64,000 nt of DNA. Source: Eubacteriales bacterium (GTDB taxonomy: Bacteria; Bacillota; Clostridia; Oscillospirales; CAG-382). The stretch spans positions 22,854-86,853 of the forward strand of contig JAZSOO010000036.1 in NCBI GenBank assembly GCA_045536935.1. Direction: 5' to 3'. This document shows, piece after piece, positions 3,733 through 46,845 of the stretch. Position 1 is the first letter of the stretch. Every line of letters starts with the position of its first letter. Both the position numbers and the translations under genes were made by a program. The notes beneath the pieces are model-generated. The model was given only the letters and a program-made list of their open reading frames with translations. It ran no database searches and was not told where the DNA came from.

Positions 3733-3809
3733 TGGTCGGAGTGAGAGGATTCGAACCTCCGGCCTCGTCGTCCCGAACGACGCGCTCTACCAAACTGAGC
3801 CACACCCCG
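3733..3809 (-). tRNA. tRNA-Pro (anticodon CGG)
   Basis: Reverse complement CGGGGTG..GCTCAGTTTGGTAGAGC..CGTCG-TTCGGGA-CGACG..GGAGGTTCGAATCCTCT..CACTCCGACCA folds as a cloverleaf. G37 present and CCA encoded. Confidence 0.95.
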
Positions 3810-3925: not shown

Positions 3926-4351
3926 CTATTCCTTAATTTTTTCACATTTAATTCGGATAATGCCCGAATCGTCCTTTGCGACGTTGACGGAGAATTCCTT
4001 CTTTTGGTCGCCTTCGGTGAGGTTAAAGGTTATTGTTGCATTGCCCTCGGCAATAGGCTTGAGGACAAGCGTTTTATAAGAAGCCGTACCGCCCCAACCA
4101 AAGGTGCCGTAATCGTTCGTTTCCTCGTTTTCAAGGAAAGTTTCGAACATTTTGCTGTCGGAAATGGTATATTCCCAAACACCGAGAGGTTCAACGTCGG
4201 AGGTCATATAAAAGCTTATAAGATCGGTTCCGTCGTTTTCATAAACGGTAAATCTAACCTCGGTAACAATATCCTTGTCCTCTCCGCAAGCGGTTAACGA
4301 GAAGCAGAGAAGTATTGCAATTAAAATAAATATAAATCTTTTCATGATCAT
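3926..4351 (-). CDS. small lipoprotein of unknown function (faint chagasin/I42 inhibitor resemblance)
   Basis: Signal peptide with lipobox LTAC. The ATG overlaps the pmbA stop (ATGA). The FGWGGTASYKTLVLKPIAEGNATITF block loosely resembles the I42 family GxGG...f.f core; unverified. Confidence 0.6.
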   Translation of the reverse strand: MIMKRFIFILIAILLCFSLTACGEDKDIVTEVRFTVYENDGTDLISFYMTSDVEPLGVWEYTISDSKMFETFLENEETNDYGTFGWGGTASYKTLVLKPIAEGNATITFNLTEGDQKKEFSVNVAKDDSGIIRIKCEKIKE

Positions 4352-14378: not shown

Positions 14379-14456
14379 TGGGGTGGCTGACCGGGTTCGA
14401 ACCGGCGACCCCCAGGGCCACAACCTGGTACTCTAACCAGCTGAGCTACAGCCACC
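14379..14456 (-). tRNA. tRNA-His (anticodon GUG)
   Basis: Reverse complement G(-1)GTGGCTG..CCAGG-TTGTGGC-CCTGG..GCCGGTTCGAACCCGGT..CAGCCACCCCA. The extra 5' G is typical of tRNA-His. Confidence 0.95.
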
Positions 14457-14461
14457 ATATA

Positions 14462-14538
14462 TGGCGTGCCTTGAGGGACTCGAACCCCCGACCTACTGCT
14501 TAGAAGGCAGTTGCTCTACCCAGCTGAGCTAAAGGCAC
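14462..14538 (-). tRNA. tRNA-Arg (anticodon UCU)
   Basis: Reverse complement GTGCCTT..ACTGC-CTTCTAA-GCAGT..GGGGGTTCGAGTCCCTC..AAGGCACGCCA. Confidence 0.95.
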
Positions 14539-14543
14539 ATATT

Positions 14544-14617
<74 letters not shown>

Positions 14618-15968: not shown

Positions 15969-16022
15969 AACAGTCATATTCAAGCTTCTCTCCGCATATA
16001 ATTTTGCGAGGAAGTGATAAAA

Positions 16023-17144
16023 ATGAGAAGAAGATTAACCGTGACCCAAAGACAAGCAATAACAAAATTAACCAGCCTTCTGCTTGGTATAGCTTTGCTC
16101 TTTTCGGTGTTCTATGCCATACCGCAGATCGTAAAAACTCTGCCTCGCCCAAACGCAAGAAAGGCGTATGCCTTCTTCGGCGGAACAACGGTAATGGCGG
16201 AGGAGAAACCAAGCTTTTCGCTCGGCTTGGGCATTTTAACTTCAGACGAGCCCGAAATAAGCGAACCGGAAGAATCCCTGCCCGAACCACCCGTCGAATC
16301 TGCTCCGCCGGAAAACGAGCCCGAGCCCGAAATACCAATAGCTCCCGGAAAAGATGACCTTCCCGTGTTTGCAAATAACCTTTGCTGGTATTCGATAGGC
16401 GAAAAAGCAGAGCTGAACCTTTTAAACAAAACCGATTTCGATGTCGATCTGAATGACTATCTGAAAAAATCCTTTCCCATAAAGGGAAACATACCGCAAA
16501 ACGAACCCCTTGTGCTGATAGTCCACACCCACGGCACGGAAAGCTATCTTGCATCGGGGCAGGACTATTATTCACCCGACGAACCGTTCCGTTCCGAAAA
16601 AAAGGAAAAAACGGTCGTACATATTGGAGAGGTCTTGAAGACCGAGCTTGAATCGCTTGGGATCCCCGTCATGCACGACGAAACGATGTACGATAAAAAC
16701 GATTACAGCCATTCCTATATAAACGCACAAAAGGGAATAACGAAGATACTTTCAGAAAACCCGTCAATCAAGTTTGTTATCGACCTTCACCGTGATTCCG
16801 TGTTCGATTCATCGGGAAGGAATATAAAACCCCTAACGACGATAGACGGCAAGAAATGCGCCCAGCTTATGTTTGTTGTCGGCACCAACCAAGGCGGCAC
16901 GTACCACCCAAATTGGCGTGAAAACCTGACTGTTGCAACACATCTGCAATCAAAGATGAACTCCCTTTTCCCAACTCTTGCCCGCCCGATAAACCTTCGC
17001 ACCTCTGCGTTTAATCAGGCATTAACAAAGGGCAGCCTTATCCTTGAGGTCGGCTCTTGCGGTAATACGCTTGAAGAAGCCGAAAACGCAATAACCCTCT
17101 TCGCCAAAGCTTATGCCGAAACGATAAAGGAGAATATGTCGTAA
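16023..17144 (+). CDS. spoIIP: stage II sporulation protein P
   Basis: N-terminal TM, low-complexity PE-rich linker, and SpoIIP amidase block LVLIVHTHGTESY...DLHRD. Confidence 0.9.
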   Translation: MRRRLTVTQRQAITKLTSLLLGIALLFSVFYAIPQIVKTLPRPNARKAYAFFGGTTVMAEEKPSFSLGLGILTSDEPEISEPEESLPEPPVESAPPENEPEPEIPIAPGKDDLPVFANNLCWYSIGEKAELNLLNKTDFDVDLNDYLKKSFPIKGNIPQNEPLVLIVHTHGTESYLASGQDYYSPDEPFRSEKKEKTVVHIGEVLKTELESLGIPVMHDETMYDKNDYSHSYINAQKGITKILSENPSIKFVIDLHRDSVFDSSGRNIKPLTTIDGKKCAQLMFVVGTNQGGTYHPNWRENLTVATHLQSKMNSLFPTLARPINLRTSAFNQALTKGSLILEVGSCGNTLEEAENAITLFAKAYAETIKENMS

Positions 17145-17164
17145 TATCTGTGAAATCACAAAAA

Positions 17165-17655
17165 TATGAATGTAGGGGAGGGTTTTATACCCTCCCGTGC
17201 TCTTAATTCGTTGTTGTTTCTTATGTCTGTGTACAAATGAAATAATATGAATTGTAGGGACCGGCGTCCTCGACGGTCCGCCCGTAAAACATCGTTGTTT
17301 CTTCTGTCTGTTCGAAAACAAAATCCAACGGTGTAGGGGAGGGGCAACGGGGTCCCTGAAAACGCTTGCGTTTTTGGGGTAATAAACCCTCCCGAACTCA
17401 AAGAATTTTGTTGTTTTTTATGTCTGTGTTCTATGCCTTAAAGGTTGATTTGCTGACGGTTTATACAACGGATAATTTCGGGCACGGGAGGGTGTAAAAC
17501 CCTCCCCTACAATGTGATTTCTATAAACAACATATTTTTACAAACGGGAGGGTGCAAGACCCTCCCCTACAAAGAAACCAATATAAACAACGAATCCAAA
17601 ACGTTTTCTCAAAATCAAGGTAAACGGACCGTCGAGGACGCCGGTCCCTACAAAA
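17165..17655. repeat. cluster of six GTAG-hairpin (REP/BIME-like) units, 3 forward + 3 inverted
   Basis: Forward GTAG at 17172, 17254 and 17333. Inverted CTAC at 17507-17510, 17567-17570 and 17648-17651. Stems are GGGAGGG/CCCTCCC or GGACCG/CGGTCC. Each unit carries a tail ending CGTTGTTT.T..TCTGTG. Confidence 0.85.
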
Positions 17656-17757
17656 AAACAACAAATTTTTACGTTTTGCGGATATTACATAGGAATTCAA
17701 AACCAACCCACACCGTGACAATAAAAAAGTACGTTGTTCAATAAAACAGCGTACTTT

Positions 17758-17967
17758 TTATTTATTCTCACTAATACCCAAAATGTAATCGCTTGTCACC
17801 CCGTAAAACTGCGCAAGCGTTATTAAATGCCGTATCGGCATCTCGTTTTGCCCGTTTTCATACCTTGAATATACCTGCTGTGTCGTCCCGATTATTACAG
17901 CAATGTCCCTTTGCAAAAGATCTCTGTCCTCTCGAAGCTCACGCAACCGTTCGGGATAGGTCTTCAT
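17758..17967 (-). CDS. XRE-family helix-turn-helix transcriptional regulator
   Basis: 69 aa. LRELREDRDLLQRDIAVIIGTTQQVYSRYENG is a classic Cro/C1 HTH. Confidence 0.85.
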   Translation of the reverse strand: MKTYPERLRELREDRDLLQRDIAVIIGTTQQVYSRYENGQNEMPIRHLITLAQFYGVTSDYILGISENK

Positions 17968-18013
17968 TATTTATCACCTCGAAATTATTTTAACATACAT
18001 CTGAAATGATGTA

Positions 18014-18042
18014 TTGACAATACACCTGATGTGGTGTATAAT
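18014..18042 (+). promoter_or_regulatory. consensus sigma-A promoter
   Basis: TTGACA (18014-18019), 17 nt, TATAAT (18037-18042). Confidence 0.65.
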
Positions 18043-18074
18043 ATCTCCATAAAAATAGAAAGGAAAGCAATTTT

Positions 18075-20123
18075 ATGAAAAAACTAATTTCGTATGCCCT
18101 TATACTCGCAATGTTATTTGCGGTTATCCCTTTATCGGCTTTTGCGGTTTCAGAGCCTATTACAATCAAAATCGGTAGATTTAATACTTACATGGATCTC
18201 GGCGAAGTTTTTGCATGGAGTTCCGCAGATGAATCTGAAACTGTCGAAACTCTATATACGGGAACTCCGGGAGCAAATACCTTTATGCATTTCTACCATG
18301 TTTGGCTGTCTTTTGATTTCGAAACACAAATGTTTGTTGTACAAGACACAGAAACTGGTTGGAATAAATACGAGACGGATTGGCAACTCGGTCCGGGTAA
18401 TCTTATAATTATGGTTTATGCTACGAGTGACTCGTATGACGCAGTTGCTTCTTTACAGATAGGAGACGGTTTGTATTTCGGATACGAAAGTAACGATTAT
18501 GAAAGCACCTTTGGTTATATTGGCATAGTAGACTCCTATTTGTCGACCGAAAAACCCGAGAAATATTGGATTCCTTCTGCCGACTGGGAGGATTCCTATG
18601 GAAACGCTTCGGATGGATCGAGTACTTCATCGGATGACACTTCTGATGATTCTTCTGCAAATCTCAGGTATACGTTGAGCGAAGATGAAACATACTATGC
18701 CGTTTCTGGACTTATTGGTAATGACAAAAATATTACAATCCCTTCAGTTTACAATAATTTGCCCGTCAAAGAAATATCGGATGAAGCTTTCTATCAAAAA
18801 ACTTATTTGTCAAGTGTAATTATTCCCGATTCTATTGAAAGTATAGGCGAACGTGCGTTTTCGTATTGTAGTGCGTTAACCGAAATCACCGTTCCCGATT
18901 CGGTAAAAACGATAGGTATGGCTGCATTTTCGTGGTGCAGAAATCTAAAAACGGTTGTACTGCCTCGAAATTTGGAAGTGATAAGCGATTCCTTGTTTGC
19001 GTACAGCAGCGCACTTGTAGATGTTATTATTCCTGGAACTGTAATTGCAATTGGAGATAATGCGTTTTTATCTTCTGCTAAACTTGCAGAGATAGAAATA
19101 CCCGATTCGGTTAAGCATATAGGCGAATGTGCATTTCGCTCGTGTTCGGCGTTGACCGATATTTCTGTACCTGATTCGATAATAACCGTTGGCTCCGATG
19201 CTTTCGAGGATTGCGAAAATTTGATTTACACTACTTATGATAACGGAATATACTTAGGAAACAAAACTAATCCTTGCGTGATTTTGATGGGAACAATCAA
19301 AAAGAGAATAACTTCTTGTTTTATTAATGAAAACACGAAGGTTATTTATGACAACGCCTTTTCGGAATCGTTGTTCACCAGTTTATCTATACCCAAATCG
19401 GTAACTTGCATCGGCAAAGAAGCATTTTACAGATGTGACACACTCACAGATATAACTTTCCCCGCATCTGTTGTTTCGATAGGAAAAGATGTATTGCTTG
19501 AATGTTATGGTATTGAAACTATAACCGTCGAAGAAGGAAATCAAGCATATCTCAGTACAGGCAATTGCTTAATAGAAGTAGAAACAAAGACGCTTATTGC
19601 AGGTTGCAAAAACAGTGTTATTCCTTCTAACGGTTCGGTTGAAAAAATAGCGGAAAAAGTTTTTTATCGTTGTGAGTATTTGGAAACCATCAATATCCCC
19701 GATACGATAGTTGAAATAGGGGAATATGCATTTGGTTGGTGCTTGATGCTTGGAAAGGTAGTCATACCTGACTCTGTCGAGAAAATAGGTGAAAACGCAT
19801 TCTCGGATTGTGATAATTTGTTTGATATCTATTGTGAAGCAGAATCCAAACCTACGGGTTGGAGCAATCTTTGGGAAGATGGGTATGCAACGGTCCATTG
19901 GGGATACAAAGCCGAACCCGAAATAATCGTTGGCGACATCAACGGCGACGACACAGTAACAGCAGCGGACTATATCGTTACAAAACGTGCGGTTATGAGT
20001 ACATACACTTTAACCGAAGCCCAAATCAAAGCAGGCGACGTTAACGGCGACGGTTCTGTTACGGCAGCAGACTATATAATGCTTAAACGTCACGTTATGG
20101 GTACATACGTGATCGGCGGATAA
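18075..20123 (+). CDS. secreted BspA-type leucine-rich-repeat protein with C-terminal dockerin
   Basis: Signal peptide. Repeated IPDSV..IG..AF..C..L units (LRR_5 type). C-terminal GDINGDDTVTAADY...GDVNGDGSVTAADY duplicated Ca-binding dockerin segments. Confidence 0.8.
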   Translation: MKKLISYALILAMLFAVIPLSAFAVSEPITIKIGRFNTYMDLGEVFAWSSADESETVETLYTGTPGANTFMHFYHVWLSFDFETQMFVVQDTETGWNKYETDWQLGPGNLIIMVYATSDSYDAVASLQIGDGLYFGYESNDYESTFGYIGIVDSYLSTEKPEKYWIPSADWEDSYGNASDGSSTSSDDTSDDSSANLRYTLSEDETYYAVSGLIGNDKNITIPSVYNNLPVKEISDEAFYQKTYLSSVIIPDSIESIGERAFSYCSALTEITVPDSVKTIGMAAFSWCRNLKTVVLPRNLEVISDSLFAYSSALVDVIIPGTVIAIGDNAFLSSAKLAEIEIPDSVKHIGECAFRSCSALTDISVPDSIITVGSDAFEDCENLIYTTYDNGIYLGNKTNPCVILMGTIKKRITSCFINENTKVIYDNAFSESLFTSLSIPKSVTCIGKEAFYRCDTLTDITFPASVVSIGKDVLLECYGIETITVEEGNQAYLSTGNCLIEVETKTLIAGCKNSVIPSNGSVEKIAEKVFYRCEYLETINIPDTIVEIGEYAFGWCLMLGKVVIPDSVEKIGENAFSDCDNLFDIYCEAESKPTGWSNLWEDGYATVHWGYKAEPEIIVGDINGDDTVTAADYIVTKRAVMSTYTLTEAQIKAGDVNGDGSVTAADYIMLKRHVMGTYVIGG

Positions 20124-20133
20124 ATCAATAAAC

Positions 20134-20163
20134 AAAAAAGAGAGGTGCGAACCTCTCTTTTTG
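20134..20163. terminator. bidirectional intrinsic terminator
   Basis: AAAAAAGAGAGGT-GCGA-ACCTCTCTTTTTG between convergent genes. Confidence 0.85.
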
Positions 20164-20901
20164 TTATAATTCAAGCAAAACACTAATCGCCGAAAGGACG
20201 TAGGAACTTGCCGTTTCGGTGCGGAGGATTCGTTTACCGAGCCCTGCAAGAGAGATGTTTTTCTCCTTTGCCTTTGCCGTTTCCTTTTCCGAAAGACCGC
20301 CTTCGGGACCAATTAAAAACCCGATCGTTTCGGGTGTTTCGGTTAGAAGCTCTTTGATGGGAAGCGTTCCGTCACCCTCGTAACAGATAAAACCAATATC
20401 CTTTTGCGAAATTTCTTCAATAGCTTGGTCGTAGGTGATAATACCGCGTATTTCGGGAATAATATTTCTACCGCATTGCGCCGCCGCAGATTCGCTGATC
20501 TTCTTAAGACGCTCAATACGTTTTGAAAAAGCCTTTACGTCGGGACGTGCAACGCAACGCTCGCTCATAACGGCAACGATCTCGTAAGCACCAAGCTCAA
20601 CAGCCTTTTGTATGACCGTTTCAAGCTTGTCACCCTTCGGGAAGCATTGATAAACAGAAACCTTAAAGGGCATTTCGTTGTTTTGCTTTTCGGGTTCGCC
20701 AAGAACGGCAAAAAGACCGTCAGCCGTAATCTCGTCGATTATTGCTTTATAAGAATTACCGTGCATATCGCAAACATGCAAAGTATCGCCCTTTTCCTTG
20801 CGAAGTACACGAAGGATATGGTTCGCATCGGAACCGTCGATATATGCTTTTCCGTCGGCAATACGGTCACTGCCAACGTAGATTCTCGGTATAAATGCCA
20901 T
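20164..20901 (-). CDS. rsmE: 16S rRNA (uracil1498-N3)-methyltransferase
   Basis: RsmE C-terminal SPOUT block IGFLIGPEGGLSEKE. Start at ATG 20901 after GGAG; the track start at 20952 adds 17 unsupported residues. Confidence 0.85.
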   Translation of the reverse strand: MAFIPRIYVGSDRIADGKAYIDGSDANHILRVLRKEKGDTLHVCDMHGNSYKAIIDEITADGLFAVLGEPEKQNNEMPFKVSVYQCFPKGDKLETVIQKAVELGAYEIVAVMSERCVARPDVKAFSKRIERLKKISESAAAQCGRNIIPEIRGIITYDQAIEEISQKDIGFICYEGDGTLPIKELLTETPETIGFLIGPEGGLSEKETAKAKEKNISLAGLGKRILRTETASSYVLSAISVLLEL

Positions 20902-21019
20902 TTTTTCAACTCCGTCGGGTTTGTTGGATTTAGTATACAATATTCCTCGCAATAAGTCAATCGCTGTCGTAAAAAGGATATATCAAGCTGTCCCTGTCGA
21001 GCGAAAGTGTAAAAGGCTA

Positions 21020-21614: not shown

Positions 21615-21800
21615 ATCATCCTGCTGGGTACGTGCATAGTCTTAGGACTCTGCCCTGTGTAAAAACCCACAATTATGAAAGGGAGTCCATATTCCGCTGT
21701 GGTGAAGCAGGCCTCCCGCATGCATTCTGCGTGCGGACGTTGGAAGCACTAAAGCATCGGAGAGGACACCCACCTGCACAAAGCAGGGTTTCATTCTCAC
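21615..21800 (+). ncRNA. candidate structured ncRNA, class unknown
   Basis: GC-rich island in an AT-rich gap with no credible ORF. Nested pairings: 21620-21625/21782-21787, 21632-21635/21776-21779, 21645-21650/21683-21688, and 21716-21724/21728-21736. The last contains a U-G pair valid only on the + strand. Confidence 0.35.
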
Positions 21801-21845
21801 GGGGGCACGGCCTTTGCGGGGTATAATCAATCATCTCAACAAAAA

Positions 21846-26763: not shown

Positions 26764-26840
26764 GCGCCGTTAGCTCAGCTGGATAGAGTAACTGGCTACG
26801 AACCAGTAGGTCAGGGGTTCGAATCCCTTACGGCGTGCCA
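26764..26840 (+). tRNA. tRNA-Arg (anticodon ACG)
   Basis: GCGCCGT..ACTGG-CTACGAA-CCAGT..AGGGGTTCGAATCCCTT..ACGGCGTGCCA cloverleaf. CCA encoded. Confidence 0.95.
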
Positions 26841-28061: not shown

Positions 28062-29090
28062 CTATTTATTCAAGCTCTTTGCAATCTGCAAAAGCTCTTT
28101 TCGTGACGAAACACGAAGCTTGGCATAGATGTTCTTGTTGTGGAACTTAAGCGTGTTTTCCGTGATGTTCAATTCCGCAAGCACGTCCTTGGTGCCCTTA
28201 CCGGAAAGATAAAGGTCGTAAACAAGCCTTTCTGTGTGGGTGAGGGTGAGAAGGTCCTTTTCAAACCGTGCGTGAATCTTTTCGGGGATAATATAAGGCT
28301 CTTCGTTTTCTGTTTTGGAAGCGCTTTTCGCCAAAGCAAGCCTTTTTTCGGTTTCCTCGTTCAGCAAACGTATACCCAAAAGGAAAAGCTCGCTGATTAT
28401 GTACGATACCGAAAGCACCTCAAAATCGACCTTGACGAACTGTTCGATAAGCCAAACACCGATATTAACAAATACCGCGGAAAGCAAAATGATCGAATGA
28501 ACAGGGGAGTCGATCTTCTTTTTGGACATAGCGTTCGAAATGAAAAATACCATCGAGCCGAAATACCCAAGAAGATAGACCATATATATTCTGTGCAACG
28601 GCCCGTATACCTTCTTCAATACACTGACGCCGTTAACCTGAATAAGCGAAACTTCCTTATAATATATATCAAGCACACCCGGACTTCCTGCAATAAGAAA
28701 GACCAAAATACCGACAGCCGAAAGCGAGATCAAGACCCATTTCGGGCATTTGATCTTGATGTTGTTGAGAATTATCATCAGCATCGACATCGGCAGAAAT
28801 ACCGAGCCGAGATAGGAGATTCTGTTTGCCCAAAGCGCAAATTCAAGTGTATCGGATATCGAAAGCAAAAGATACCCAAGGTTGACAACGGTAACCGAAA
28901 CAAAAAGGAAGAAAAGCCAAAAATCCTTCTTCTTATTAAAACACGCATATCCGATCACCAAAGCCAGCGATACAAAAAACGTAATGCCGTATATAATTGT
29001 CGTTCCCGTTGTCTTTTCGCCTTCACTGCAAGCAGAGAACAAAAGTAAAGCGAACAGAAAGACAAAGCTCAAAGTCAAATTTCTTTTCAT
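28062..29090 (-). CDS. membrane-embedded LuxR-family (HTH) regulator
   Basis: Lipoprotein-like signal (LLLFSAC), about 6-7 TM helices, then C-terminal LuxR HTH TERLVYDLYLSGKGTKDVLAELNITENTLKFHNKNIYAKL. Start at ATG 29090 after GGAGA. Confidence 0.7.
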   Translation of the reverse strand: MKRNLTLSFVFLFALLLFSACSEGEKTTGTTIIYGITFFVSLALVIGYACFNKKKDFWLFFLFVSVTVVNLGYLLLSISDTLEFALWANRISYLGSVFLPMSMLMIILNNIKIKCPKWVLISLSAVGILVFLIAGSPGVLDIYYKEVSLIQVNGVSVLKKVYGPLHRIYMVYLLGYFGSMVFFISNAMSKKKIDSPVHSIILLSAVFVNIGVWLIEQFVKVDFEVLSVSYIISELFLLGIRLLNEETEKRLALAKSASKTENEEPYIIPEKIHARFEKDLLTLTHTERLVYDLYLSGKGTKDVLAELNITENTLKFHNKNIYAKLRVSSRKELLQIAKSLNK

Positions 29091-29362
29091 TAAATTTCTC
29101 CAAAAAAGTGTGGGTACACCCAAACCTACACCTTTTCCCACCCTATTTTTTTAAAAAAACTCAAACCCCACCCTTTTATCAAGCTAAAGTGTGGTGCTTT
29201 GCAAAAAATAATGTGTATAATGAAGGTGTAAAGTATATATTACTGTGCTGTAAATATAACTTACGTTAGTAATAACATATTATATCATATTTTTTGCTAA
29301 CGGTCAAGGTATATCTAAAACGGCACAAAAAAACAAAATTTTCCGAAAAAGGAGAAAGAAAA

Positions 29363-31411
29363 ATGAAAAAACGCATTTTAAGTTTACTTCTCGTAGGAAT
29401 GATGATTTTGACACTCATCCCCTTGTCAGCATCTGCGGACGAAAAGACGGTAATTACCGAAATCGTCGCAACCTATGATTTTGTCCAACCCACCTACGGT
29501 CAGGAAATCGATAAAGATATCACTTTTGATTTCACGGTCGAGGGCGGTCTTCCCATCACGTTTTCAAGCGAAAGCTTCGACTGGTATAAAGGCGTCGGTG
29601 AAGATTGGGATGACGTTGACTTTGGCTATTTTTCCGACGGTACTTGGTGCCACGACATAAAAGTTGTGCTTGACGATACCGATAATTATGAATTTGCCCC
29701 CGAAGGTGTTGACGTTATAATCAACGGTGTAAAATGGGATACTATCTACTATGACGGTTGGATCAAATCCCCTTCCTTCGAAATTGAATTTGTTGAAGGA
29801 CTTGCTCTTGATTTATTTTCTTACGATAACTATGCTGTCCCCACTAACTATGTCGGACAGGCAATATCCGAATATACCTTCGTTCCCGGTGTAATCGGCG
29901 GCTCAAGACCTTATACCTTCTCCAAATCAAGCGGTCCCGATTGGTTGAACGTTTCTGCCGATGGTGTTCTCACAGGTACTCCTACCGCTATTGGTGAAAA
30001 TGACGCTTTGATAGTCACCGTTACCGATGCTAACGGCGCAACCGATTCCTTGGAGGTTTACGTTTATAATACCTATATGAACCCTGCAGACCGTGAGGTT
30101 ATTTCCCGTGTTGTCGGTACTGTTGAAGTGCCCTCCTTCAAGTGTGGAGATGAGCTTGAATTCGATTCCGCTCCCGTTCTTCTCGAAGGATATCCTGCCA
30201 CCCTTTCTGTTTCCGGTTCCGATTTCTACCTTATCGATTCCGAAGATAATGTCGGCTCCCCCGTATATATCGCAACCTACGGTGAAACGTATATATATGA
30301 CATCTACGTTGCAATCAAGGACGACGCAGGCCGTACACACGTTCTTGACGAAAACCTTGAAGTTGTCATAAACGGCGTATCGACAACTGTTACGCCCAAT
30401 ATTTCTAATTCGGAGTCATTTACATGGGTTAAAGTAATGCAAAAGGTAACGGTAGAGCACTGCTTTGATAACGATTCCGACTCCACCTGTAACGGCTGCG
30501 GTGCGGTTGTCCGTGAGGGCTGTGACCACCGGTACGATGACGATTGTGATGAAGATTGTAATGTTTGCTCGGCATTGCGTGACGTAAATCATAACTATAC
30601 TAACGATTGTGACGCTGACTGTAACGATTGTGGTGAGATCCGCGTGCCTTCGGACCACAGATATTCGGGTTGTAACGATGCATATTGCGACGAATGTGGC
30701 GCATATCGTAACACACCCGTTCATACCTACGATGGCTGTTCCGATACGATATGCAACGTATGCGGAGAAGAAAGAGAACCCGCACATATTTATGATGGCG
30801 CTTTGGATACAACGTGTAACTCCTGCGGTGCAACCCGTATACTTAATTATATCAAATTGAACGAAGAAAAGGTTGCCGAAATCACTTCCGGCGGTCAGTA
30901 TGTTGACTATATCTTCACTCCCGACGTTTCGGGTACGTTTGTTTTCGCTTCTCATTGTGACGATTCGATCTTTGATACAAAGGGATATATATACGATGAG
31001 AACGGAGAAGAATTGTTTTACGATGACGACGGCGCAGAAAACCGTCAGTTCATGTTGGAATACGGATTCGAAGCGGGTGAAACCTATATTTTAAGAGCTA
31101 TGTTCTATGCTAGTTCGCAGACCGGAAGCATTCCCGTATCTCTCGTTTGTAACCACGTTTATGACGACGATTCCGACAACAGATGTAATATTTGTAACTA
31201 TAACCGAAGCGGTGCTATCCTCGGTGATATAAACGGCGACGATGAAGTAAATGCAACCGACTATATCCTTGCAAAACGTGCGGTTATGGAAACCTATACG
31301 TTATCCGAAACCCAAATCCTCGCAGGTGACATAAACGGCGACGGTGAAGTAAACGCCACCGACTATATCCTTCTCAAACGTGCAGTTATGGGTACTTACG
31401 TTATAGGATAA
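29363..31411 (+). CDS. secreted dockerin protein with Ig-like domain, Cys-rich HxY..C..CNxCG repeats and PPC-like domain
   Basis: Signal peptide MKKRILSLLLVGMMILTLIPLSASA. Putative-Ig block PYTFSKSSGPDWLNVSADGVLTGTP. Six tandem Cys units plus one more 3'. C-terminal GDINGDDEVNATDY..GDINGDGEVNATDY dockerin. Confidence 0.8.
   Translation: MKKRILSLLLVGMMILTLIPLSASADEKTVITEIVATYDFVQPTYGQEIDKDITFDFTVEGGLPITFSSESFDWYKGVGEDWDDVDFGYFSDGTWCHDIKVVLDDTDNYEFAPEGVDVIINGVKWDTIYYDGWIKSPSFEIEFVEGLALDLFSYDNYAVPTNYVGQAISEYTFVPGVIGGSRPYTFSKSSGPDWLNVSADGVLTGTPTAIGENDALIVTVTDANGATDSLEVYVYNTYMNPADREVISRVVGTVEVPSFKCGDELEFDSAPVLLEGYPATLSVSGSDFYLIDSEDNVGSPVYIATYGETYIYDIYVAIKDDAGRTHVLDENLEVVINGVSTTVTPNISNSESFTWVKVMQKVTVEHCFDNDSDSTCNGCGAVVREGCDHRYDDDCDEDCNVCSALRDVNHNYTNDCDADCNDCGEIRVPSDHRYSGCNDAYCDECGAYRNTPVHTYDGCSDTICNVCGEEREPAHIYDGALDTTCNSCGATRILNYIKLNEEKVAEITSGGQYVDYIFTPDVSGTFVFASHCDDSIFDTKGYIYDENGEELFYDDDGAENRQFMLEYGFEAGETYILRAMFYASSQTGSIPVSLVCNHVYDDDSDNRCNICNYNRSGAILGDINGDDEVNATDYILAKRAVMETYTLSETQILAGDINGDGEVNATDYILLKRAVMGTYVIG
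31220..31411 (+). repeat. dockerin-coding 3' module, near-identical to 32928-33119
   Basis: By-eye alignment: 192 nt with 4 mismatches, while the upstream coding sequence is unrelated. Confidence 0.85.
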
Positions 31412-31487
31412 AAATCAAAGTCAAAATCAAGGCGAATCTGTCTTGATTTTGACACTAAAAACCAATCGGCTTTAAAGGAAGTATAAA

Positions 31488-33119
31488 ATGAAAAAAAGAT
31501 TACTCAGTTTTCTGCTTTGCGCCGTGATGTTGATTGGCTTAATGCCGACAATGGCATTTGCGTTGGCTGCAAAATTACAAACACCGCAAAACCTCAAATT
31601 GCAAGGTACTGTGTTATCTTGGAGTGCTGTTGACAATGCGGATTTCTATGGTGTTACTTTATATCATCCAAATTACCAATATAGCATTGGCAGTTGGCAA
31701 ACTGATGGAACCAGCATCAATCTTTATAAGTATCTTAAAGACGGAGAAACCTATGGTGCTACCGTAATTGCTTGCAGTAACGGATCTTATCAGATATCCA
31801 CTCCTGCAGAAATACCTTTGACAGCTTGTACTAATGGTGGTGTCCCTATTTACAGAGATGTTAATGTGGTAAACGGTACTTCTTCTAATGCTACCGCATA
31901 CCCTGGTATGTCTGTCCGCTTAGAAGCAAAGCCGGCGCCGGAAGGCATGGTTTTTGACCGTTGGGAGTTGAGTGGTGGATACACCAATATCGGATATAGC
32001 GATACAGATACCGTTATTTATGTACAGGCGATTTGTGACAATGACATAAGTGCCCGTGCTACTTACAAATATCAAGAAAATGTCACTTCAGCCTTTACAG
32101 TTCAGCCGCATGGCGGTGCTGCTTTGGTTGGTGAATCTTTCGGTGTTACCTATGCGATGAATTTTACTCCTCAAGGAACTGTCAAGGTACAAGTAGAGGG
32201 GAATACGCCCGGAAGCTTTACCGATCTAAAGCAAGGAGCAATTAACAGTGCTTCGGTTAAGGAAGATAGTGTAGTAACAAAGACATTCCGTATCATGGCA
32301 TTCGATGGTACTCGAAATATTTATAGTGATGAATTTGTTGTATCGTGGGAAGATGGTCCTCGCTTTATCACTCAGCCTGTTGGCGGCACAGTGGATCATA
32401 ATGTAGATTTTGAAGCTACATATGCTTTGAACTTTACTCCTTTCAGCTGTCGTGTAGAGCGATATAATGATTATTTGGGTCGATGGGTTGAGTTGTCTAA
32501 TGCTTCCGCAACACAGGCAACAATCAGCTCCTACGATTTTAACACTACAAGCAACTATAGAATCAAAGCTATCATTGAGGGCGGTGGAGAAGTATATAGT
32601 GATGAATTTACCGTAACTTGGAGCGATGCAGTTTCAAAATTTATTCAGCATCCTGTAGGCGGGACGGTTGGCTTTGATGAGGACTTCTCGTTCACTTTTG
32701 CTATTAACTTTACTCCCGTATCAAATGTTGCGATTCAAAAGTATAATTCAGGTTTCGACTCATGGGACACGGTTAGTTATTGTACATCTTTGACCTCCGG
32801 TACAATTCTCGGATTCGCTTCCGAAACTACAAATAAGTATCGTCTTGAAGCATACGAAAATGGAACTCCTATTCACAGTAACGAGTTTACTGTTACTTGG
32901 GAAGACGCCGACACTATCGGACACATTCTCGGTGATATAAACGGCGACGATGAAGTAAATGCAACCGACTATATCCTTGCAAAACGTGCGGTTATGGAAA
33001 CCTATACGTTATCCGAAACCCAAATCCTCGCAGGTGATATAAACGGCGACGGTGAAGTAAACGCCACCGACTATATCCTTCTCAAACGTGCAGTTATGGG
33101 CACGTACGTTATAGAATAA
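31488..33119 (+). CDS. secreted dockerin protein with FN3-like N-domain and three ~92-aa repeats of unknown fold
   Basis: Signal peptide. Repeats share (F/I)xQPxGG...NFTP...YR(I/L)(K/E)A...YS(D/N)EF(T/V)V(T/S)W(E/S)D. C-terminal dockerin. Confidence 0.8.
   Translation: MKKRLLSFLLCAVMLIGLMPTMAFALAAKLQTPQNLKLQGTVLSWSAVDNADFYGVTLYHPNYQYSIGSWQTDGTSINLYKYLKDGETYGATVIACSNGSYQISTPAEIPLTACTNGGVPIYRDVNVVNGTSSNATAYPGMSVRLEAKPAPEGMVFDRWELSGGYTNIGYSDTDTVIYVQAICDNDISARATYKYQENVTSAFTVQPHGGAALVGESFGVTYAMNFTPQGTVKVQVEGNTPGSFTDLKQGAINSASVKEDSVVTKTFRIMAFDGTRNIYSDEFVVSWEDGPRFITQPVGGTVDHNVDFEATYALNFTPFSCRVERYNDYLGRWVELSNASATQATISSYDFNTTSNYRIKAIIEGGGEVYSDEFTVTWSDAVSKFIQHPVGGTVGFDEDFSFTFAINFTPVSNVAIQKYNSGFDSWDTVSYCTSLTSGTILGFASETTNKYRLEAYENGTPIHSNEFTVTWEDADTIGHILGDINGDDEVNATDYILAKRAVMETYTLSETQILAGDINGDGEVNATDYILLKRAVMGTYVIE
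32928..33119 (+). repeat. dockerin-coding 3' module, near-identical to 31220-31411
   Basis: See 31220-31411. The downstream hairpin GTCAAAATCAAGG...CCTTGATTTTGAC is also shared. Confidence 0.85.
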
Positions 33120-33162
33120 GAATAAAAGTCAAAATCAAGGACATGCGCCTTGATTTTGACAC

Positions 33163-33268
33163 CTATGAACGTTGCGAGTGCACAAACGTAGTTTGGGCGC
33201 GACGGCGCGAGCGCACAACGTTCCCAAAAAACGAACGAAAACCTATTTTCGTTCGAGAGCGAAGCGAC
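33163..33268. repeat. short hairpin block with AACGTT-type linkers
   Basis: GAACGTTG...CAACGTTC outer pairing and inner GC-rich palindromes. Also a 10-bp hairpin CGAACGAAAA-CCTA-TTTTCGTTCG. Confidence 0.5.
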
Positions 33269-33301
33269 CGTGCAGTTATGGGCACTTATACCATAGGATA
33301 A
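33269..33301 (+). pseudogene. orphan 3'-terminal dockerin fragment (RAVMGTYTIG-stop)
   Basis: CGTGCAGTTATGGGCACTTATACCATAGGATAA repeats the last codons of the neighbouring dockerin genes. No upstream ORF; followed by its own hairpin. Confidence 0.6.
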
Positions 33302-33320
33302 AACAAGGCAAATGAAAAAG

Positions 33321-33351
33321 TTAAAAGCAAGGTTCTCAGCCTTGCTTTTAA
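33321..33351 (+). terminator. hairpin/terminator after the orphan dockerin fragment
   Basis: AAAAGCAAGG-TTCTCAG-CCTTGCTTTT. Confidence 0.6.
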
Positions 33352-33404
33352 CACCTGATTTACGGATAAAACAAACCAAATCCCCCCAAAAAGGAGAATG
33401 AATT

Positions 33405-36400
33405 ATGAAAAAACGATTTTTAAGCTTGACACTCGTGCTTGCAATGCTTCTTTGCATTGTTCCTACTACAGCATTAACGTCATTTGCGGTTGAAACTTAT
33501 CCTATCTACGTTATCGGTGTAGGTATGAACGACGGTGACTATCTTGCCAGCGGCGCAACTTCAACGCAAACAACAAAACCCTCGTCCAGCAACGGATATG
33601 CCTATTATGAAGACGGCATCCTGACTTTGCATAACTTTAAGTATACAGGAAATACGGGGTATATGGATGATTTGATCTATTCGGATACAAATCTTAATAT
33701 CTTCCTCGAGGGAACAAGCGAACTTACCAATACCGATGAAGCCGGCAATTTCGCCTTATGTGCCGAAGAGCGTATCGTTATAAGAGGCGAAGGCGAGCTC
33801 ATTGCAAGGGCGTATATACCGATATTTGCAAATGAGGTATTTATAGAAAAGTCAACTGTAAACGTAGGTGGATATCAACACGGAATTTATGCGTATGACG
33901 GTGATATATACATCTACGATGCTGATGTTTATATAGATTCGGGATATGTCGGTTTATATACCGTTTCCGAAGCGTCAGAAATCGCTATTGAACGCAGCGA
34001 AGTTTATATATACGCAAAAGCATACGCTATATTGGCCGAGGGCGATATTTATATGGACTATAGTAACGTTGAGCTTAATTCAACAGACATAAACTATAGT
34101 GCTTTGCAATGCAACGGTGACTTAACTATCGCAGACGGCATGAGCGGTTGGGCTTCGACAGTTTCCGGCGGTGATTCCTATTCGAAATACGATCCCAAGA
34201 ACCTTGAAAGCTATCAATGGATAGCGTTCAGCATTTCAAGCAAAACCGGCCGTAGCGTAACAGTTGTCGGAGTAACAATGTACCAAGGCGATTATCTTCC
34301 TGTAAACGCAACCAAAACACAGGAAGACATGCCCTCGGGCGGTTATGCATATTTTGACGGGTATTACTTGATTCTCGATAATTATACCTACGAGGGTAAA
34401 GGATTTATATACGATACTAAAAATTACGGAATAATCTCTGATTATTCTCTTAATATAATCCTTGCGGGAAGAAACAGTATAACCATCTCGGACGATTCCG
34501 ACAATGGCGTTTGCGAGGGAATTCGGTCGGGCAGAAACATTCACATCAGCGGCGACGGAACGCTTAATATCAAATCGGATATTTCGCTCATTACCGGTCA
34601 TGGCGGTATTTATATCGACAATACAACGGTAAATACGGTCGGTACAGCCAATTATTACAATGTAACAACGTTCGAAAGAAACATCGAGATCACCGACAGT
34701 ACGGTAACTATCGACAGTTTGGGCGGCGGTTTGCAGTGTTATGATGAAAAGTTGGATATCTACATAACCGGAAGCCACGTAACGATCGACGTAAATGCGG
34801 AATGCATTGTTTCGAAAAGAGATGATGTTGAAGGTTGCCTCTTCGTTCAGGACAGCTATTTGAATTTACGAAATAACGCTTTCAACATAATAGATGCAGA
34901 CTTCTATTGCTCCGATAACCTAACCGTGTTAGCTTCGACGAACAGAAACGGAACCAACGCAGTTACCTATAACCCCGCAAACCTTTCTTCATATCAATGG
35001 ATAGAAGCAACAAGAAAGGTTATAAGCTATATCGACGTTGTTGATATAGACGTTCCCGAAACCACTTTCCACCCCGATTTCGAAGGCAATCTCGACAGCC
35101 CGTATACGATCATCGAAGATATTGACTGGTATGAGATCGATGATGACGGTGATCTTATGGCTGATGTTTTGCATTATGAGCGCTTTGAGGAAGGCAAAAA
35201 ATACCGTGTGTATATAACCGTCAGGGCTGCCGACGGATATGAATTCGACGACATCAATACCACAGCTTACATAGGCCCGAAGCAGGCGAGTAATGCTTCT
35301 GTTCAGACGGGCAACCAAAAATTAAGAACTGTTTGGACAGACTATACCGCAACGGGCAACCCCGAAAACCTAACTCTCAGTATCGGCAATATAACCCTAA
35401 GCGACGGTGATTATCTTGCCTCCGACGCAACGGGCACAACCACAACAGAACCTTCCACGGGCTATGCTTACTATAAAAACGGCGTGCTCTATCTGAACGA
35501 CTATAAAGATTCATATAGCGAGGTTCGATACAAAGAGGGCTTCCTCGAGGTAAACGTAACGGGTGATTGTACTATCGGCTCGTTCGTTGACGACTATGAT
35601 AACAACAGCGATAAAACCTATGGCCTTAAATTCACGGGCGACGGCTCTCTTTCGATAGCAGGATACGGTGAAGGCTGGGACGGCTCTATTACAGCAACGG
35701 GCGGCGACGTTATCTTTGACGGTCCCGACGTAGAGATAGGCGATAACGCATATTGCTTTGAAGGTGTTGAATATATTTGCGTTTACCAAGGCGAGATATA
35801 TGCATATACTGCTCAAAGCGGTGCGTTTGCGATGAACGACGATACCTGGATTTACGTATACGGCGGCAGCTTGGAGCTTTTCGATGCAGGCTGCTTCAGC
35901 GATTTCATTCCCGAAGATATTTACGTACAAGCAGGCAACGTTTACGTTGGCGATAATAGAGATTTTTCGTCCGCAACACTCTGGGACGAAGAAACTCCTC
36001 TTGCCACTTACGAAGGCATTTTGGTTACACCCAAATTTATCGACCGATTTGACGCAGAGGTCGAAGCACCCGAAATAGGCAAAAACCCGTCTTTTGAAGT
36101 AACGACCGCAACCGAACACTGTAACGTTGTTGTATATGATTGGTTTAACGGTGATTTTGAAATGTTAGACGAAGATGCTGTGTTTGAAGCGGGCGTTCAG
36201 TATGCTGTCGGCATTGATTTCTATGTAGAAGACGGCTATACGGCAACCAATAATGCAAAGTTTTACATCAACGGCATCGAGGCTGAATGGATACACGTAG
36301 AAGATAATTGGTATTATGCATATATCATTTACGAACCTCTTGAAGAAGAACCCGAATATATCCTCGGTGACGTAAACGGCGACGGAGCAGTAAATCTTAA

Positions 36401-36554
36401 CGACTATACAATGGCAAAACGTGCTGTTATGGGCACCTATGTTTTAGATGAAACGCAAGCTCTCGCAGCAGATATAAACTGCGACGGACAGATTACACTT
36501 AACGACTATACAATGCTCAAACGTGCAGTTATGGGCACGTACGTTATAGGATAG
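33405..36554 (+). CDS. large secreted dockerin protein (1049 aa), repetitive, possibly beta-helix-like
   Basis: Signal peptide MKKRFLSLTLVLAMLLCIVPTTALTSFA. Three copies of a GDYL..AT.T...P..GYAY...G.L.L.N(F/Y) module. C-terminal GDVNGDGAVNLNDY..DINCDGQITLNDY dockerin. Confidence 0.8.
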   Translation: MKKRFLSLTLVLAMLLCIVPTTALTSFAVETYPIYVIGVGMNDGDYLASGATSTQTTKPSSSNGYAYYEDGILTLHNFKYTGNTGYMDDLIYSDTNLNIFLEGTSELTNTDEAGNFALCAEERIVIRGEGELIARAYIPIFANEVFIEKSTVNVGGYQHGIYAYDGDIYIYDADVYIDSGYVGLYTVSEASEIAIERSEVYIYAKAYAILAEGDIYMDYSNVELNSTDINYSALQCNGDLTIADGMSGWASTVSGGDSYSKYDPKNLESYQWIAFSISSKTGRSVTVVGVTMYQGDYLPVNATKTQEDMPSGGYAYFDGYYLILDNYTYEGKGFIYDTKNYGIISDYSLNIILAGRNSITISDDSDNGVCEGIRSGRNIHISGDGTLNIKSDISLITGHGGIYIDNTTVNTVGTANYYNVTTFERNIEITDSTVTIDSLGGGLQCYDEKLDIYITGSHVTIDVNAECIVSKRDDVEGCLFVQDSYLNLRNNAFNIIDADFYCSDNLTVLASTNRNGTNAVTYNPANLSSYQWIEATRKVISYIDVVDIDVPETTFHPDFEGNLDSPYTIIEDIDWYEIDDDGDLMADVLHYERFEEGKKYRVYITVRAADGYEFDDINTTAYIGPKQASNASVQTGNQKLRTVWTDYTATGNPENLTLSIGNITLSDGDYLASDATGTTTTEPSTGYAYYKNGVLYLNDYKDSYSEVRYKEGFLEVNVTGDCTIGSFVDDYDNNSDKTYGLKFTGDGSLSIAGYGEGWDGSITATGGDVIFDGPDVEIGDNAYCFEGVEYICVYQGEIYAYTAQSGAFAMNDDTWIYVYGGSLELFDAGCFSDFIPEDIYVQAGNVYVGDNRDFSSATLWDEETPLATYEGILVTPKFIDRFDAEVEAPEIGKNPSFEVTTATEHCNVVVYDWFNGDFEMLDEDAVFEAGVQYAVGIDFYVEDGYTATNNAKFYINGIEAEWIHVEDNWYYAYIIYEPLEEEPEYILGDVNGDGAVNLNDYTMAKRAVMGTYVLDETQALAADINCDGQITLNDYTMLKRAVMGTYVIG

Positions 36555-36570
36555 TGTCGCAGACACTATC

Positions 36571-36768
36571 CATCGATATAAATCCCTTGCGGGATTTTCG
36601 ATATATTTTGCATATCTCGCTTATTGCGATATATGCAAAACTCGATATGCATAAATGCTCGAGATGCTCTGCGGAGCAAGAGGGATTTATATCATATCGA
36701 ATCCGAAATTTATGTGGATATATCGATTTCGCATAGCGAAAATATCGAATTGCGAAGCAATATATCGG
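36571..36768 (+). repeat. TCGATAT-linker multi-hairpin element, copy 2
   Basis: ATCGATAT-AAATCCC-TTGC-GGGATTT-TCGATAT..., homologous to the reverse complement of 11191-11398. Confidence 0.8.
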
Positions 36769-36806
36769 CAAAAAACAAAGCAAAACCCCAAAAAGGAGAA
36801 TTAACA

Positions 36807-41237: not shown

Positions 41238-41253
41238 AATTTAAAATAACGCA

Positions 41254-41400
41254 TTGTAGGGGAGGGTTTTATACCCTCCCGTACTCTTTATACGTAGTTG
41301 TTTCTATCGTCTGTGAAAAAAAGAAAAAACATTTTGCAGCTAAGATTATATACAACAAGATCTTACGGGTTCGGGCGGGTGTAAAACCCGCCCCTACGTT
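41254..41400. repeat. convergent pair of GTAG-hairpin (REP-like) units
   Basis: Forward GTAG 41256-41259 + GGGAGGG/CCCTCCC + tail GTACTCTTTATACGTAGTTGTTTCTATCGTCTGTG. Inverted GGGCGGG/CCCGCCC + CTAC 41394-41397. Confidence 0.85.
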
Positions 41401-41445
41401 CGCTTCGTAATTCTTTTTTATCTTCATTATAAAACGGTACGCAAA

Positions 41446-41476
41446 CAAAAAAAGGGCATCAAACGATGCCCTTTTA
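41446..41476 (-). terminator. intrinsic terminator after ung
   Basis: GGGCATC-AAAC-GATGCCC flanked by A/T runs. Confidence 0.8.
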
Positions 41477-41483
41477 CATTTGA

Positions 41484-46729: not shown

Positions 46730-46758
46730 TTGACATTGGTGGAAATTTGTGTTAAACT
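46730..46758 (+). promoter_or_regulatory. sigma-A promoter with extended -10 for the rplU operon
   Basis: TTGACA (46730-46735), 17 nt, TGtTAAACT (46750-46758). Confidence 0.6.
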
Positions 46759-46765
46759 TGCATTT

Positions 46766-46845
46766 GCCGCATGTATGGGGTTTTTCAAGTTGCGCAAGCA
46801 CACCTCTTGACAGCGAGTCTTAATGAAAGGAATTGGTGCTTACAA
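46766..46845 (+). promoter_or_regulatory. possible L21 ribosomal-protein leader
   Basis: ~80-nt leader with AAGCAC...GTGCTT pairing just before the rplU RBS. Firmicutes commonly carry an L21 leader here. Not verified against a model. Confidence 0.35.

Follow-up and report, generated by a model that had tools for sequence, protein, structure and literature searches.

The window, a stretch of 64,000 nucleotides (64 kb) from a contig of the Clostridia (Oscillospirales), contains eight short units in which the tetranucleotide GTAG is followed by a hairpin, and these units most likely represent GTAG-class REPs (repetitive extragenic palindromes). They fall into two sequence types and form a REP cluster at one locus (locus 1) and a REPIN-like inverted doublet at another (locus 2). 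REPs are small palindromic repeats of 20-40 nt whose copies are distributed over bacterial chromosomes by a RAYT, a domesticated tyrosine transposase. The units of the window are hairpin-forming, GTAG-tagged, extragenic and dispersed repeats under selection for pairing. A REP identity had been proposed for the first of these loci in the first-pass annotation, and it is upheld by the extragenic location of the GTAG hairpins, the covariation of their stems, the co-occurrence of RAYT-type Y1 genes in related Clostridia, the presence of the exact type-B 26-mer of the window in seven RAYT genes and the orthologous site of a relative in which the cluster is absent. For the window itself we infer the link between repeat and RAYT by analogy with other genomes, which carry single-copy HUH/Y1 genes.

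Locus 1 (17172-17651) occupies the spoIIP-XRE intergenic region and consists of six GTAG-plus-hairpin units, three forward and then three inverted (+ + + - - -), with the forward GTAG starting at 17172, 17254 and 17333 on the + strand and the inverted CTAC ending at 17510, 17570 and 17651. Four of the six units are of type A, with the stem GGGAGGG(T)/(A)CCCTCCC of 7-8 bp and a 5-nt loop, and two are of type B, GGACCG-gcgtcctcga-CGGTCC, with a 10-nt loop. This order of units, with all of their coordinates, and the division into four and two stems had been noted in the first-pass annotation and are borne out. Units 2 and 6, described there as exact reverse complements over about 27 nt, are 100% reverse-complementary over 29 nt (17252-17280 and 17625-17653), and the 43-nt insertion reported in the loop of unit 3 is found at 17344-17386, where it forms its own 11-bp hairpin (CCCTGAAAACGC/GCGTTTTTGGGG). 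As no other copy of this insertion was found in the window or in approximately 240 fetched loci, the idea that it belongs to another repeat family was rejected. The features of locus 1 and its flanks are as follows.

16014-17144, + strand: spoIIP (Pfam SpoIIP match)
17172-17196, + strand: unit 1, GTAG and type-A hairpin (GGGAGGGT-tttat-ACCCTCCC; -8.9 kcal/mol, z -3.9)
17197-17252, + strand: linker ("tail") of unit 1 with GTTGTTTCTTATGTCTGTG, reaching to unit 2
17254-17279, + strand: unit 2, GTAG and type-B hairpin
17280-17331, + strand: linker of unit 2 (GCCCGTAAAACATCGTTGTTTCTTCTGTCTGTTCGAAAACAAAA...)
17333-17393, + strand: unit 3, GTAG and type-A hairpin with the unique 43-nt loop insertion
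17394-17429, + strand: linker of unit 3 (..TTTTGTTGTTTTTTATGTCTGTG)
17486-17510, - strand: unit 4, inverted, type-A hairpin; linker 17452-17485
17546-17570, - strand: unit 5, inverted, type-A hairpin; linker 17515-17545
17626-17651, - strand: unit 6, inverted, type-B hairpin, exact reverse complement of unit 2; linker 17572-17625
17724-17759, bidirectional: intrinsic terminator common to spoIIP (+) and the XRE gene (-), conserved in a relative (L242/L243)
17758-17967, - strand: XRE-type HTH gene (HTH_3 match)

Locus 2 (41256-41397), which the first-pass annotation had missed, adds two further units. Together they form a 142-nt inverted doublet with GTAG on the outside, which is capable of forming a single long hairpin (-27.3 kcal/mol, z -4.4).

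41256-41280, + strand: unit 7, type-A hairpin, identical to unit 1; linker 41281-41316 with GTTGTTTCTATCGTCTGTG
41373-41397, - strand: unit 8, inverted, with the compensatory stem GGGCGGGT/ACCCGCCC (GGGCGGG/CCCGCCC)
41450-41475, bidirectional: intrinsic terminator of the dockerin gene (stop 41237) and the UDG gene (stop 41484)

GTAGGG is invariant in all eight units, with GTAG unpaired at the 5' foot of the stem, and the distance from GTAG to the end of the stem is 25-26 nt in seven of them and 61 nt in unit 3, because of its loop insertion. The stems are perfect throughout and 6-8 bp in length, the eight hairpins reach -8.8 to -12.7 kcal/mol when folded as single-stranded DNA, and the fold z-scores range from -2.8 to -4.7 in seven units, with -2.0 for unit 3 with its insertion. 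The pattern GTAGGGRNSSG has eight exact matches in the window where 0.38 are expected, a number reached in none of 100 shuffles, and 0.00 matches to the full 26-nt hairpin patterns are expected by chance in the window; a chance origin of the eight-unit set is thus excluded. GGGAGGG/CCCTCCC and GGGCGGG/CCCGCCC constitute a compensatory stem change within the window, so that short palindromes, a 5' GTAG, an extragenic location and compensatory stems, all features of REPs of the GTAG class, occur together in units dispersed over two loci in 64 kb. The first-pass annotation had also ascribed a common tail to each unit. One part of it, GTTGT(T/A)T, does follow all eight hairpins (14-16 nt downstream in seven, 34 nt downstream in unit 6), but the further part ..CTTNNGTCTGTG is restricted to the four forward units (17212, 17293, 17409 and 41296).

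The presence or absence of the repeats, which the first-pass annotation had proposed to compare among strains, differs among relatives. In one relative (L242/L243), with 83% nucleotide identity over spoIIP and the same gene order GPR-spoIIP-XRE-LRR/dockerin, the spoIIP-XRE gap measures 85 nt, against 613 nt in the window, and holds one linker-like stretch and the conserved terminator, which indicates that the locus-1 cluster arose by insertion or expansion. L241, the closest relative (92.7% nucleotide identity), has a conserved left flank and a contig that breaks off within the linker, and a different small palindrome (TGTCATTCTGAGCGTAGCGAAGAATCTC) takes the position of unit 1 of the window; the site is thus a turnover hot spot for small palindromic repeats. 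A second family of small palindromes (TGTCATYCYGAGCG...GAAGRATCTC), with no copy in the window, adjoins GTAG hairpins in L241 (2583-2632), L242 (4090-4165), L142, L158 and L230, the L241 copy being the one at the position of unit 1. Close relatives had no GTAG units in the stretches covered, 11.5 kb of L249 and 18.6 kb of L244.

Larger segments that include the loci also vary among the relatives. The segment 17145-20163, comprising the REP cluster, the XRE gene and an LRR_5/dockerin gene, is missing from L244 (GCA_045651025.1, approximately 80% nucleotide identity), where spoIIP is followed directly by a homolog of 20164-20952, and L242 possesses the XRE and LRR_5/dockerin genes but not the REP cluster. 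Similarly, a 13.4-kb block (28074-41483) is missing from L249/L250/L251 (87-97% nucleotide identity; one of them GCA_017532245.1), in which the equivalent of window position 28073 abuts that of 41484. This block comprises five long ORFs, including one for a 1537-aa dockerin protein, then the REP doublet, which thus sits at its right edge, and the terminator. The best homologs of the SpoIIP and UDG proteins of the window show 94% and 97% identity, respectively.

The linker is reiterated together with the hairpins at locus 1. Its BLAST matches are confined to the close relatives L241 and L242, none of 244 fetched loci contains it exactly, and the sequence that follows the hairpin differs lineage by lineage. 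The linker was considered as a stand-alone dispersed repeat and rejected, as it is present in the window only after the four forward units. Relatives of the unit 2 linker are located in L242 at 4220-4246 and, without a hairpin, at 2454-2500. The latter stretch, orthologous to the window just past 17144, is approximately 80% identical to the unit 2 linker, falls after the stop codon of spoIIP and ahead of the terminator, and has no GTAG hairpin. Given this lone linker, the mobile entity may be either the hairpin alone or the hairpin together with its linker.

Beyond the close relatives, both hairpin types are widespread in the Oscillospirales. A scan for the type-A hairpin with one genome per species identified at least 120 loci, about two-thirds of which, among the matches listed, belong to MAGs of Oscillospirales or other Clostridia and the remainder to other phyla. 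The hosts include Ruminococcus, Gemmiger (including Gemmiger formicilis ATCC 27749), Faecousia and Acutalibacteraceae. At least 120 metagenome contigs, with very diverse flanks, contain the type-B hairpin in exactly the 26-nt form present in the window. Among the matches listed, neighbouring units are inverted with GTAG on the outside in 73 cases, inverted with GTAG on the inside in 25 and direct in 29 in one set, the corresponding numbers being 58, 17 and 29 in the other. Nine different, perfectly complementary stems surround the conserved type-B loop, which shows that the pairing is under selection. None of the scanned genome or metagenome loci shows synteny with the window. Two other Clostridia contigs carry GTAG hairpins in direct tandem, in arrays that resemble the direct runs of the window, L192 (1040-1137, type B, with a period of 36 nt) and L057 (6097-6235, type A, with a period of 57 nt).

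Both loci in the window are located between convergent genes, after the stop codon of the + strand gene and before a bidirectional intrinsic terminator, which at locus 1 places the cluster between the spoIIP stop codon (17144) and the terminator at 17724-17759. Since both sites lie between stop codon and terminator, both are probably transcribed as 3' UTR; no promoter was found inside the locus-1 cluster. From this position, a role in the transcript such as 3'-end protection is plausible, as stable 3'-UTR hairpins would impede 3'-5' exonucleases. It is unlikely, though, that the hairpins act chiefly at the RNA level, as stabilisers of the 3' UTR or as auxiliary terminators, and that they are kept by selection on the transcript, were multiplied only through local duplication and recombination and are linked to RAYTs by coincidence. 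In favour of such elements are the position of both sites, the very strong fold of the whole spoIIP 3' UTR as RNA (-229 kcal/mol, z -11.7; unit 2 pairs with unit 6), the linker reiterated along with the hairpins and the single type-A hairpin (41260-41280) that fits a loose terminator pattern. The other seven of the eight units are missed by a terminator scan, which needs a T run after the stem; the actual intrinsic terminators, with a GC-rich hairpin and a T run directly after it, are those at 17724-17759 and 41450-41475. Furthermore, the identical 26-mer recurs in both orientations in the at least 120 unrelated contexts, RNA pairing does not explain the invariant unpaired GTAG, and RAYT genes both contain these hairpins and are flanked by them. 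A role in RNA is compatible with RAYT-driven spread and is not an alternative to it.

Comparison with Rfam gave no match at gathering score for the repeats, with only chance-level matches at E <= 10 in the region 16900-18000. Matches at gathering score are located at 21615-21826, 14382-14617, 3736-3809, 26764-26837 and 46752-46830, the families found being 6S RNA, an L21 leader and tRNA, with five genes, of which three form a cluster upstream of rpsT and spoIIP.

The first-pass annotation was correct in that no RAYT or Y1 transposase gene is encoded in the 64-kb window, as judged by tblastn. Among the matches listed, ORFs with the motifs MPNHIH, WQ and YIxxNP are, by contrast with the window, found at eight genome loci and seven metagenome loci; the RAYT-bearing loci L245-L248 have no genes in common with the window. 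The encoded proteins are approximately 165-225 aa in length and carry the motifs RKxxRL..YDY..GAYF(V/I)TICT, V/IIMPNHIH, WQ and YIxxNP, with the HuH and Tyr motifs (MPNHIH, YI..P) invariant across 31 aligned members. They match Pfam Y1_Tnp with 25.5 and 24.3 bits, both above the cut-off (23), and their best NCBIfam match is REP_Tyr_transpos (REP-associated tyrosine transposase), with a score of 66.9 that lies below the curated cut-off of 80. The only PDB sequence match is 4ER8, the TnpAREP of E. coli. At E <= 0.001, all matches of a structure predicted with moderate confidence (pLDDT 68.8) are Y1 transposases. The TM-scores to 4ER8 are 0.48-0.55, and its query-normalised value (0.48) is the highest among the structural matches listed. 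With a type-B member as query, 2576 clusters (90% identity) were returned at E <= 1e-10, two of which, among those listed, are named 'REP element-mobilizing transposase RayT' by JGI, with NCBI labelling others as hypothetical proteins of Clostridia or Ruminococcaceae. Judged by their motifs, profile matches and predicted fold, the Clostridial proteins are of the RAYT (TnpAREP) type and closer to TnpAREP than to TnpA(IS200).

A different origin for the units, as non-autonomous PATE/MITE derivatives of IS200/IS605 that are moved by a multi-copy TnpA(IS200) rather than by a domesticated RAYT, is very improbable. The fold and the Pfam family are common to IS200/IS605, and the top Foldseek matches by E-value are to ISDra2 TnpA, but the proteins fit the RAYT model far better than that of IS200 (E 1.7e-18 against 5e-4). 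Each of the three members located on long contigs is a solitary gene surrounded by housekeeping genes (recR, tpiA and pepF), and no tnpB is present among the called genes at the three loci. The repeats, too, bear the REP-typical GTAG tag and not the asymmetric left and right ends of an insertion sequence, and the window contains no IS200-like ORF.

The RAYT genes themselves carry the REP hairpin in frame, forward near the N-terminus and inverted after the HuH motif, where it encodes peptides such as VGEGLCPLP or VGTGVLDGP and ..GG..PPLQ or GPSRTPVPT, respectively. The number of in-frame copies differs between orthologs, with one to four at the N-terminal site and one or two after HuH. Among the matches listed, the exact type-B 26-mer of units 2 and 6 is in frame within seven metagenome RAYT genes, and in L017 and L074 cognate hairpins flank the RAYT gene in a REPtron layout. 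The HuH-coding segment is bracketed by hairpins in L024, L060, L074, L083, L115, L118, L134, L185 and L245-L247; in-frame hairpins are known for RAYT subclass 2.4, but their extent here is striking. The GTAGGGGAGGG...CCCTCCC hairpin is also found in MAGs of Acidobacteriota, Pseudomonadota and Chloroflexota (L004, L006, L012, L069, L103 and others), and in L103 (Chloroflexota) it is in frame within a RAYT gene. These occurrences point to a hairpin type common to this RAYT clade across phyla.

That locus 1 is the wreck of a RAYT gene with amplified internal hairpins is scarcely credible, as the forward-then-inverted order of the units does recall that inside RAYT genes (where the hairpins are approximately 190 nt apart) and tblastn of a type-B RAYT matches 17218-17289 (E 0.001), but the match is carried by nine hairpin-encoded residues, the sequence between the two runs (17394-17485) has no HuH-like region in any frame, the flanks of the intragenic hairpins are unlike the window linkers at the DNA level and the relatives lack any gene at this site. 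Derivation of the linker from RAYT coding sequence, an idea that stemmed from the resemblance of 'FLCLCTNE' upstream of unit 2 to 'FLTICTKE', with AATATGAAT before GTAG, was likewise rejected; the DNA identity is approximately 50% and the tblastn score comes from the hairpin.

If the units are GTAG-class REPs, their spread can be pictured by analogy with TnpAREP enzymes, from which the mechanism is carried over to Clostridial proteins of subclass 2.4. The mechanism has been established for the enzymes of E. coli, Stenotrophomonas and Marinomonas (PMC8266576, PMC3479197), and the TnpAREP proteins tested recognise the hairpin and GTAG on single-stranded DNA, make a GTAG-guided CT/CA cut beside the hairpin and perform strand transfer (PMC8266576). 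A RAYT encoded elsewhere in the genome would accordingly bind the folded hairpin and GTAG on single-stranded DNA and cut at a dinucleotide next to the hairpin, with GTAG helping in the choice of the site and a 5'-phosphotyrosine link being formed, and the rejoining of the strand elsewhere would give rise to new REP copies. The two opposed three-unit runs of locus 1 would then grow by tandem reiteration of the hairpin and the adjacent linker DNA, a mode of growth described for clusters of GTAG REPs (PMC3733652).

The repeats of the window share many features with the GTAG REP families of Di Nocera et al. 2013 (PMC3733652), including the unpaired 5' GTAG, complementary stem variants and a mostly extragenic location, downstream of genes and between convergent genes. 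In those families the stems are 6-9 bp long, dimers with GTAG on the outside ('HH') are preferred and 'large REP clusters' have been described (PMC3733652), and the form of the window cluster, with opposed tandem runs and a reiterated linker, matches such clusters. The type-B hairpin differs from them in its 10-nt loop that is conserved across species. The hosts in that survey were Proteobacteria, Cyanobacteria, Chloroflexi and the PVC group, with Firmicutes unmentioned (PMC3733652), and no description of GTAG REP elements of gut or rumen Clostridia was found in the literature searched. The statement in the first-pass annotation that such elements are described mainly in proteobacteria is therefore right for the REPs, but RAYT genes are already known in many phyla. 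The repeats thus belong to a type of element already known, and their hosts here are gut or rumen Clostridia.

The Clostridial proteins may be placed in RAYT subclass 2.4 (Quentin et al. 2018, PMC6006769), which corresponds to Group 4 of Bertels et al. 2017 (PMC5581495), an assignment made by comparing motifs and in-frame hairpins with the published description. They have in common with this subclass the NH[IFV]H and WQ motifs, a YIxNNP-like Y motif (here YIYENP and YIDTNP), a length of approximately 170-210 aa and the lack of a C-terminal extension domain, along with long REPs with G-C pairs at the foot of the stem and REPs in frame within the gene in variable number (PMC6006769). Clostridia have been named for RAYT Group 1 only (PMC5581495). 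The very large clade in gut and rumen Clostridia, represented by the 2576 clusters, sets the present proteins apart from the published subclass 2.4.

In the REP/BIME-TnpAREP system of E. coli (4ER8; PMC3479197, PMC8266576), a GTAG hairpin is likewise read as single-stranded DNA by a monomeric HUH/Y1 enzyme, and the linkers between the REPs are conserved as they are in the window. The E. coli REPs, however, have bulged stems and are arranged in alternating BIMEs (Y/Z), and the enzyme is of Group 2 with the HuH motif DHLH, whereas in the window the stems have no mismatches and a run of three direct units is opposed to a run of three inverted units. The orientation of the units does not alternate as in BIMEs in the E. 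coli sense, and 'BIME-like', as the units had been termed in the first-pass annotation, fits their conserved linkers but is a loose term for two opposed tandem runs. Locus 2, with its inverted REPs and spacer that fold as one long hairpin, resembles the REPINs of Pseudomonas (Bertels and Rainey 2011, PMC3116915). The REPIN-RAYT system also features a single-copy transposase among housekeeping genes, which in Pseudomonas is vertically inherited. The Pseudomonas RAYTs belong to Groups 2/3, though, and are accompanied by hundreds of near-identical REPINs, whereas the two arms at locus 2 resemble each other only in part.

A more far-reaching proposition, which must be regarded as unlikely, is that gut and rumen Oscillospirales possess an unusually uniform REP-RAYT system in which one 26-nt hairpin, with its conserved loop and covarying stem, is kept identical in the extragenic copies of many species and also, twice and in opposite orientations, in the reading frame of the RAYT gene, that the hairpin pair of the gene, with the HuH-coding segment in between, may be a substrate of its own product and that the REPs might help in the gain or loss of the strain-variable dockerin blocks 17145-20163 and 28074-41483, at whose edges they lie. 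If this were true, the in-gene hairpin pair would represent a switch that limits itself or a master from which new REPs are copied.

The finding leaves the understanding of how REPs work unchanged, and its most interesting loose ends are the type-B loop conserved across species and the in-frame hairpin pair in the transposase gene. With it, the known range of GTAG-type REPs and of their RAYT partners of subclass 2.4 comes to include a major group of Firmicutes of the gut and rumen, in which the repeats are unannotated and the enzyme is mostly labelled 'hypothetical protein'. In these bacteria the REP repeats may break short-read assemblies; the L241 contig stops within the linker. The repeats also mark intergenic sites whose variability might serve for strain typing, and they probably shape the 3' ends of mRNAs.
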